Below are positions 26,962 through 27,610 of a DNA stretch of 32,000 bases, one piece after another. This DNA is from Mycobacterium malmoense (GTDB taxonomy: Bacteria > Actinomycetota > Actinomycetes > Mycobacteriales > Mycobacteriaceae). The notes under the pieces are model-generated. The model ran no database searches and was not told the origin of the DNA. It saw only the letters and a list, made by a program, of their open reading frames with translations. Where the stretch lies: the NCBI RefSeq assembly GCF_019645855.1, contig NZ_CP080999.1:3989270-4021269 (forward strand), written 5' to 3'. Position 1 is the first letter of the stretch, and each line of letters opens with the position of its first letter. A program made the translations under genes and the position numbers.

Positions 26962-27610
26962 ATCGCTACTAGGGACGAAAAATGAACGGCCACTTGACTT
27001 TCCTCTGCGTCAGATTCGACTGCACAACTGGCCAGCCGAGTATTGATCTGTTCCGCAGGGACCGTTGGCCGTCGATGACCGCAGTTGTGGTGAGCCCCAC
27101 CACCATGTCTGTTGACGTGTAAAACAGATTCGCTATGAAACTGTCTACAGTCAAACTGAGGTGCAGTACTTCGACAACTGAACACGGATGGTTCACAGGA
27201 GGTTTCCAGCGGGCCGTACCCACACGTTCAGCTAGCCAATGCGGTGGTTTCGTAGTTGCTGGGCGGCGGCGTGGCTGGTTCTTACTCGACTTCGACCGGA
27301 GGCGTGAAGCCACACCCACTGGCTGGGCGTAGTGACGAAGTCTGCTGCAAATCTCCTGTGTATCAACCATGTGGCGTTGTCGAGTGCTTACACTTCGGTT
27401 TACCTGTCAAGTAATCAGCTCAAGGAAGTTTTAGGTGCGTTGACATCGCGTCAACCACTATGGCGGTGGGGCTCGCCATAACCGCTCGTCACACCATCGA
27501 CGGCCAACGGTCCCTGCGGAACAGATCAATACTCGGCTGGCCAGTTGTGCGGCCATATGTGACGCAGAGGAAAAGCAAGTGGCCGTTCAACTTTCGTCGC
27601 TAGTAACGAT
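26962..27610. repeat. Foldback element: ~156-bp imperfect inverted repeat arms flanking a ~330-bp low-G+C core
   Basis: The left arm (26962-27117) matches the reverse complement of the right arm (27449-27610). A 55-bp perfect core (27023-27077 versus 27495-27549) is CACAACTGGCCAGCCGAGTATTGATCTGTTCCGCAGGGACCGTTGGCCGTCGATG. Overall arm identity is roughly 80-85% by eye. A 120-nt sample of the centre is about 49% G+C. No convincing ORF. Confidence 0.8.

Follow-up and report, generated by a model that had tools for sequence, protein, structure and literature searches.

What is the long inverted repeat that separates a broken PE gene from a narK-like gene in the genome of Mycobacterium malmoense? 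It lies at about 26962–27610 of the window analysed here, which comprises 32,000 nucleotides (nt) of the 5.32-Mb single-contig genome (NZ_CP080999.1; genome positions 3989270–4021269). A first-pass annotation of the window saw a foldback that could be an element resembling a miniature inverted-repeat transposable element (MITE), the scar of an inverted duplication, or a transcribed long hairpin. The two flanking genes were correctly named, as profile searches confirm, and the geometry is indeed that of an inverted duplication. The sequence itself is most probably something else: two paralogous 5′ leader cassettes placed back to back, each with an aptamer of the fluoride-riboswitch fold, a translational platform, and the start of an open reading frame (ORF) derived from an enolase gene. 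On this reading, the repeat arose as a side effect of equipping two divergent operons with the same leader.

The repeat does exist and is larger than first described. A repeat search of the window pairs positions 26932–27077 with 27495–27640 (146 nt, 83% complementary) and a further arm block at 27081–27117 with 27449–27485 (37 nt, 78%), and BLAST alignment of the reverse-complemented left half with the right half gives 84% identity over 162 nt (E 1e-47), far beyond chance. A weaker second block (reverse complement of 27153–27210 versus 27344–27401; 74.6% identity, E 3e-5) extends the repeat well into its presumed centre. The G+C content of this centre is 52.6%, rather than the ~49% given previously, compared with 66.3% for the window. 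The perfect core is present, although at 56 nt (27022–27077 and 27495–27550) it is one base longer than reported, and the palindrome GTTGAC-ATCGC-GTCAAC is at 27439–27455 as described. The matching termini of the arms also stand, and they are enolase-derived codons.

The arm is not limited to two copies: a BLAST search of the whole genome with the arm as query locates three further ones. All five, from BLAST and gene annotation, are situated 5′ of a gene and point at it; two lead to NarK-like genes, two to PPE-PPE genes and one to an intact enolase:

Right arm, in the window, + strand: precedes the NarK-family MFS gene, with its ATG at 27892.
Left arm, in the window, − strand: precedes an N-terminally truncated PE gene, then two PPE-SVP genes.
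Copy B, genome 4021339–4021657, just beyond the window end, − strand: precedes PPE B1 and PPE B2.
Copy C, genome 4031445–4031725, − strand: precedes a second NarK-like gene, 76% identical to the first.
Copy D, genome 123806–123990, + strand: precedes an intact enolase (TIGR01060, 512 bits).

The enolase behind copy D is a paralog, with another enolase (52% identical) encoded elsewhere in the genome.

One arm is a ~300-nt 5′ leader cassette that reads outward to its own gene. Alignment of the five copies and motif mapping reveal an upstream module that the NarK and PPE copies have in common, a near-invariant aptamer-like core, a GACGCAGAGGAA Shine-Dalgarno sequence, and the beginning of an ORF with a GTG or ATG start codon, then GCC GTT and ~20 codons. 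The parts other than the aptamers are arranged in the window as follows, with the limits of the central spacer taken from motif positions and the alignment of the upstream regions (BLAST-level similarity of the arms ends at 27210/27344):

26877–26993, − strand: left upstream ORF, 38 codons, the first ~20 of which are a decayed enolase N-terminus (alignment and translation).
27000–27011, − strand: left Shine-Dalgarno region, GACGCAGAGGAA (alignment and motif mapping).
27114–27236, − strand: left upstream module, with motifs CTGGAAACCTCCTGT, TTGTCGA and TTTGACTGT; presumed promoter or operator.
~27237–27318, no strand: non-repeated spacer between the cassettes.
27319–27452, + strand: right upstream module, common to copies B and C and to the narK and PPE leaders of other species.
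27561–27572, + strand: right Shine-Dalgarno region, GACGCAGAGGAA (alignment and motif mapping).
27579–27884, + strand: right upstream ORF, 101 codons, with an enolase-derived N-terminus (alignment, translation and sequence).

The left upstream ORF stops 19 nt ahead of the GTG of the PE fragment, and the right upstream ORF stops 7 nt ahead of the narK-like ATG. In copy D the cassette codons are the true N-terminus of enolase (MAVEFLSITALEILDSRGRP), and the other copies contain recognisable relics of it (VAVQLSSLVTIAFPESRGRP, VAVHFSSLVAIEVSGPRVGP and similar). Longer relics are found in other species, including 125 residues ahead of narK in locus L054, and enolase-like residues are also present ahead of PPE in locus L027; the start-codon pattern missed many copies outside this genome, and the survey of upstream ORFs is complete for this genome alone. 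The presence of these relics at the starts of the cassette ORFs, with longer ones in other species, indicates that the cassette was copied from an enolase gene, and its source, as judged from the alignments, is the leader and 5′ end of a riboswitch-controlled enolase paralog.

The only Rfam matches in the region are to RF01734 (Fluoride; the crcB motif), and both read outward. Scores from R1, a covariance model built from 42 copies of the genus, are listed with them:

27453–27536, + strand: right aptamer, P1 at 27462–27477 and pseudoknot tail at 27504–27519; RF01734 22.8 bits at 27453–27523; R1 93.7 bits.
27036–27113, − strand: left aptamer, P1 at 27089–27104 and pseudoknot tail at 27053–27068; RF01734 20.5 bits at 27049–27113; R1 79 bits at genome 4016305–4016380.
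Genome 4021440–4021519, − strand: aptamer of copy B, just outside the window; RF01734 20.7 bits.

Copy C scores 18.4 bits against RF01734, and copy D is not reported. Each aptamer spans ~70 nt and folds into P1 (4–5 bp) with an 8-nt loop, P2, and a pseudoknot of six pairs that joins the P1 loop to the 3′ tail. P1 is GGCG/CGCC in the right arm and GGUG/CACC in the left, a compensatory change of both bases of one pair. The subtype to which these aptamers belong is marked by GGUGG in the P1 loop, by CCAACGG ahead of the pseudoknot strand, and by a longer P2 that contains a bulge. In T. petrophila numbering, reportedly that of Ren et al. 2012, it has G rather than A at position 6, C rather than U at 38, A rather than G at 39, and C rather than U at 41. 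The conserved nucleotides of the 3′ strand are GCUGAUGG in the RF01734 consensus and GCCAACGG in the arms. Intermediate forms, in which GGUGG is combined with CCGAUGG, link the subtype to the canonical copies of the same genome.

The proposed pairings were counted in a wider R1 alignment of 99 hits from actinobacterial loci and from the canonical copies of this genome (93 distinct sequences). Overall, 98.9% of the pairs in P1, the pseudoknot and two tertiary pairs are standard; P1 is 97.8% paired and the pseudoknot 99.5% paired, with five pairs changed on both sides. Of 500 shuffles, at most one reaches any observed pairing measure, and four of the five measures are reached by none. The pair at the end of the pseudoknot is C-G in 56 sequences, U-A in 23 and U-G in 12, with one C/C non-pair and no C-A. 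Positions 6 and 38, reportedly a tertiary pair in the crystal structure of Ren et al., are G-C in 89 sequences and A-U in four, with no mismatch. The nucleotides of the A40-U48 linchpin are present at the homologous columns in 92 of 92 sequences, and this linchpin is essential for the fluoride-locked state (PMC8752731).

The core pattern of the subtype is found at >120 loci across the Actinomycetota, including Streptomyces, Micromonospora, Nocardia, Amycolatopsis, Nocardioides, Kribbella, and Mycobacterium helveticum. Ten aptamer-downstream ORFs picked in other Actinomycetota comprise eight crcB genes, one DUF190 gene and one enolase gene, although these were mostly chosen for their CrcB-like N-termini and serve as a check, not as an unbiased sample. 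Enolase, pyrophosphatase and formate hydrogenlyase are established targets of fluoride riboswitches (PMC11139923). An association of the aptamer with fluoride-toxicity genes is thus seen both in M. malmoense, where copy D precedes enolase, and in the eight crcB-linked loci. One crcB-linked Streptomyces aptamer scores 16.5 bits, and RF01734 therefore under-detects the subtype; an Rfam scan of 64 kb of actinobacterial loci gave no fluoride matches because the subtype scores too low, and a small-window scan is needed. In a Nocardioides metagenome-assembled genome (L069:4452–4926) a subtype aptamer is located ahead of a DUF190 (COG1993) protein, which raises the possibility that this uncharacterised protein also belongs to the fluoride regulon.

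Within the genus, an arm match is present in 28 of the 299 other genomes scored (~10%). These species provide 40 copies. Five of them have a downstream gene that could not be classified, and each of the others lies ahead of one of three gene types: an enolase paralog, a NarK-like gene or a PPE-PPE pair; a NarK-family transporter is the commonest target, and none of the examined copies precedes crcB. The same divergent PPE-PPE/NarK layout, with an aptamer for each side, is present in three other genomes (G094, L025; G042, L031; G202, L039). The PPE and NarK modules are within ~5 kb of each other in other orientations in three more (G191, G258 and G292), and in G124 the narK leader is ~2 kb from a leader that is followed only by a short PPE-like fragment. 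Leader-borne PPE and NarK sets are linked (within ~5 kb) in at least seven species, including this one.

The upstream modules of the NarK and PPE leaders contain a near-palindrome, TTGACTGTCAA, ~50 nt 5′ of the aptamer (in the window, 27144–27155 on the − strand and 27399–27410 on the + strand), as well as conserved CTGGAAATCTCCTGT and TTGTCGA blocks, in other species too. Together these elements resemble an operator or promoter that the species have in common. The upstream region of the enolase leaders differs from that of the NarK and PPE leaders.

The genes to which the two cassettes in the window and the neighbouring copy B lead are:

27892–29307, + strand: NarK-family MFS transporter, 471 aa from the ATG; TIGR00886 208.8 bits, below the cut-off of 311.7.
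26630–26857, − strand: PE fragment, 75 aa, N-terminally truncated; PF00934 E 3e-12, profile positions 24–83 of 91.
25202–26473, − strand: PPE A1, 423 aa, the first intact gene past the left arm; Pfam PF00823 E 1.5e-65; 60% identical to PPE B1.
23923–25158, − strand: PPE A2, 411 aa, distal, with PPE and PPE-SVP domains; PF00823 E 9e-66 and PF12484; 59.5% identical to PPE B2.
29332–31803, − strand: PPE B2 and PPE B1, a paralogous two-PPE operon behind copy B (annotation and alignment).

The NarK-like protein aligns end to end with Escherichia coli NarU and NarK, its best solved relatives (E 1e-51). When we count residues along this alignment, the two arginines that bind substrate in NarU (R87 and R303) both align, which makes an anion a plausible substrate. 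The PPE pairs A and B are, to judge from their protein identities (60% for A1/B1 and 59.5% for A2/B2), old paralogs, and their leaders are still ~80% identical in DNA. The PE fragment lacks the first 23 positions of the profile and is 44% identical to the intact PE protein encoded behind a canonical riboswitch elsewhere in the genome (see below). In other species the homologous leader leads directly into the PPE pair, with no PE gene between them, and the PE remnant therefore seems to be a local recombination product. A few PPE proteins have recently been shown to be mycomembrane channels, according to three reports (PMC8826857, PMC12802285 and PMC13315784).

The cassette organization suggests how the aptamer could control these genes. 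The minimum free energy (MFE) folds of three of the five leaders (left arm, copy C and copy D) contain a helix between the aptamer's 3′ half and the Shine-Dalgarno and start region (GACGGCCAAC.GGUCCCUGCG with CGCAG(A)GGA...GUGGCCGUU), and this pairing would account for the enolase start codons travelling with the aptamer. Because the aptamer tail takes part both in the pseudoknot and in the Shine-Dalgarno helix, we infer from the folding models that the expression platform is a translational ON switch. In the ligand-free state the 3′ half of the aptamer would pair with the Shine-Dalgarno sequence and start codon; with fluoride and Mg bound, the pseudoknot would hold that strand, the ribosome site would open, and the upstream ORF would be translated. 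Translation of the upstream ORF would then permit expression of the downstream gene by one of two routes: translational coupling, given the short gap of 7 nt between the right ORF stop and the narK-like ATG, or protection of the transcript from Rho, as in the Mbox/pe20 and B12/ppe2 leaders of M. tuberculosis. The right cassette would control the NarK-family MFS gene and the left cassette the PE remnant and the two PPE genes, with the upstream module (~130 nt) presumably acting as promoter or operator. From sequence, we infer that both leaders are transcribed, bind fluoride and switch, and the location of such a leader before PE/PPE genes suggests that these mycobacterial envelope proteins respond to fluoride.

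Several observations weigh against this interpretation of the repeat as a pair of fluoride-riboswitch leaders. None of the five copies reaches the RF01734 gathering score of 34 bits, although this threshold is operational and not structural, and positions 38 (U to C), 39 (G to A) and 41 (U to C) depart from the canonical RF01734 consensus. Most of the wider alignment was gathered with a pattern that fixes many positions, and its variation comes only from the degenerate positions along with the canonical copies. When the copies of the genus are taken by themselves, the aptamer hardly varies, and for that reason covariation does not reach significance. The MFE folds of the right arm and copy B favour a local hairpin over the start codon and not the helix between the tail and the Shine-Dalgarno sequence, and the proposed switch geometry is accordingly tentative. 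A promoter and terminator scan of the region predicts no sigma-70-type promoter, and the one 'terminator' that it reports is the left P1, taken from the wrong strand. The RF01734 genome scan places no fluoride-riboswitch hit near the crcB1/crcB2 pair, which encodes the usual fluoride exporter (1505487–1506205; L180 and L181), and the first target of the left arm is probably defunct, the PE gene being truncated.

The changes at positions 38, 39 and 41 lend themselves to another interpretation, in which the aptamers are real crcB-fold riboswitches but the mycobacterial subtype, with its extended P2, CCAACGG and CUGCGGAAC tail, senses a different small anion such as nitrite or nitrate. That the commonest target in the genus is a NarK-family transporter, with both NarU arginines retained by our count, and that crcB is not among the targets of the genus copies examined, would be in keeping with such a ligand. 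However, the same GGUGG/CCAACGG core precedes crcB in eight of the ten ORFs picked from other Actinomycetota, only three types of target recur in the genus, one of them being the enolase paralog, classically a fluoride target, and the intermediates with GGUGG and CCGAUGG tie the subtype to canonical copies in the same genome. Fluoride is held through Mg and backbone phosphates, and base changes need not shift specificity (PMC8752731). A ligand other than fluoride is unlikely.

Decay is a further consideration, in that one or both arms could be non-functional parts of an inverted-duplication scar whose similarity reflects recent duplication or gene conversion, not selection. The truncated PE gene behind the left arm fits this, as do the upstream ORFs, which are decayed enolase fragments of differing lengths, and the 56-nt perfect block and the short terminal branches of the copies in this genome hint at gene conversion; a tree of the leaders (150 nt) is a polytomy from which gene conversion between the two arms is undecidable. 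Nevertheless, the left arm retains P1 by way of the compensatory double change, the whole pseudoknot strand, the Shine-Dalgarno sequence and the start codon, the leaders (~80% DNA identity) are more conserved than the PPE proteins behind them (~60%), and the leader-to-PPE-PPE and leader-to-NarK arrangements are found in many species. The inert rearrangement scar of the first-pass annotation is thus decidedly unlikely. The inverted-repeat geometry and the several genomic copies are also features of a MITE-like non-autonomous element, but the repeated unit is a single arm and not the foldback, every copy is oriented to a gene and carries a ribosome site and start codon, and the same three types of downstream gene recur in ~28 species; mobility as a MITE or foldback was rejected on these grounds, no target-site duplication having been reported in the first-pass annotation and no search for one, or for an empty site, having been made here. 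A hypothetical full-length transcript spanning both arms does fold strongly on paper (−424.6 kcal/mol, z = −23), although the strong fold merely restates the inverted repeat, the RNA motif is confined to one strand and faces outward in each arm, and no single functional transcript needs the two together; the long hairpin RNA was likewise rejected. We regard a mobile element or a long hairpin as highly improbable.

Taking the repeat as two fluoride-riboswitch leaders, a broader role can be proposed tentatively, as a possibility rather than an expectation. In a subset of mycobacteria a fluoride-sensing RNA might co-regulate a NarK-like inner-membrane anion transporter and a dedicated PPE pair, with its own riboswitch copy for each, such that together they could form a fluoride- or small-anion-responsive route across the plasma membrane and the mycomembrane. 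The sensor would be of an Actinomycetota-wide subtype unannotated by Rfam, and the platform would derive from the first part of an enolase gene.

As an aptamer, the element is a variant within a known class. What is new, and testable, is its conserved position before PPE-PPE and NarK-like genes, together with a platform that descends from enolase. Like other fluoride riboswitches (RF01734) it has P1 with an 8-nt loop, P2, the six-pair pseudoknot and the A40-U48 linchpin, it shares the target classes crcB, enolase and pyrophosphatase, and this genome also has canonical copies that score above threshold, at distances from a variant copy that can be as short as 500 nt. It differs in its low score (16–23 bits for the subtype versus 34), the changes at positions 6, 38, 39 and 41, and the longer, bulged P2. 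The platform here is built on the start codon and opening codons of an ORF that descends from enolase, and the mycobacterial targets include PPE-PPE operons and NarK-like MFS genes. A literature search returned nothing linking fluoride riboswitches to PE/PPE genes, to mycobacteria, or to NarK-like MFS targets. A preprint (bioRxiv 10.64898/2026.10.21.760802; October 2026) describes, in the passages concerned, a crcB-linked 'candidate divergent fluoride riboswitch' cluster of 307 loci, all of which are below the RF01734 gathering score (maximum 28.9 bits). On a comparison by description rather than by taxon or sequence, that cluster is similarly crcB-linked and sub-threshold, and the same passages mention no PPE, NarK or enolase-derived platform.

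A second relationship is to PE/PPE operons of M. tuberculosis, for which parts of two reports (PMC12810186; PMC11260477) describe a riboswitch, an upstream ORF, Rho and a PE/PPE operon. As described there, the mycobacterial Mbox/pe20 and B12/ppe2 leaders similarly have a riboswitch whose translational platform controls a short upstream ORF, with a PE/PPE operon behind it, but the aptamer class and ligand are different, and the upstream ORF in M. malmoense is an enolase relic. The likeness to MITEs and foldbacks is in the ~700-bp inverted-repeat geometry; unlike these, the single arm recurs, close to genes, oriented, and before the same gene types across species.

The functions of most PPE proteins are unknown, and a riboswitch names a ligand and so gives a direct, testable clue to the role of the genes that it controls. 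This has already been explored for Mg with PE20-PPE31 and for B12 with PPE2, and leaders before PPE-PPE and NarK-like genes make the question of which PPEs move which small solute testable for another solute. They also raise the possibility that a NarK-family transporter has a fluoride- or anion-related function that has gone unnoticed. For annotation, the under-detection by RF01734 concerns an entire actinobacterial subtype, and the cassette illustrates clearly how the 5′ end of a coding sequence can be put to new use as a riboswitch expression platform.

Besides the five cassettes, the genome contains ~15 more fluoride-riboswitch-like elements, and the RF01734 hits number six above threshold and a dozen below. 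Two of the canonical riboswitches are:

Within G000:C1 4031445–4032164 (L011 and L023; the stretch that also contains copy C), + strand: 51.9 bits, precedes an inorganic pyrophosphatase gene (Pfam).
Genome 4527354–4527416 (L015, to 4529503): 41.3 bits, ~400 nt 5′ of intact PE (99 aa) and PPE (455 aa) genes (Pfam).

The second of these is a second, independent link between a fluoride riboswitch and PE/PPE genes. The pyrophosphatase riboswitch is ~500 nt from copy C (− strand) and divergent from it, forming a second back-to-back pair that is composed of two different subtypes. Further downstream genes identified by Pfam include a MutS-like pair (MutS domain V) and an Sbt_1-family transporter with a homologous copy at a second site; USP-like, hyc/hyf-like and ABC-type ATPase genes are assigned by N-terminal sequence alone and belong to the island described below. 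Canonical RF01734 hits above threshold are present in 27 of 150 other sampled genomes of the genus, mostly one in each, and nine or more hits at E 1e-4 or better are found only in this genome and two of the others.

A dozen RF01734-type hits are concentrated in a 'fluoride island' at G000:C1 119000–184000. R1 finds two further subtype-like aptamers there, at 156096–156178 (+) and 134266–134350 (−), with 47.4 and 35 bits, respectively, and without an RF01734 report. The island includes three divergent riboswitch pairs (133261−/134426+, 135898−/136022+ and 160548−/160675+), and its downstream genes, by Pfam, encode an Sbt_1-family transporter, a BD-FAE hydrolase, the enolase paralog and a MutS-like protein.

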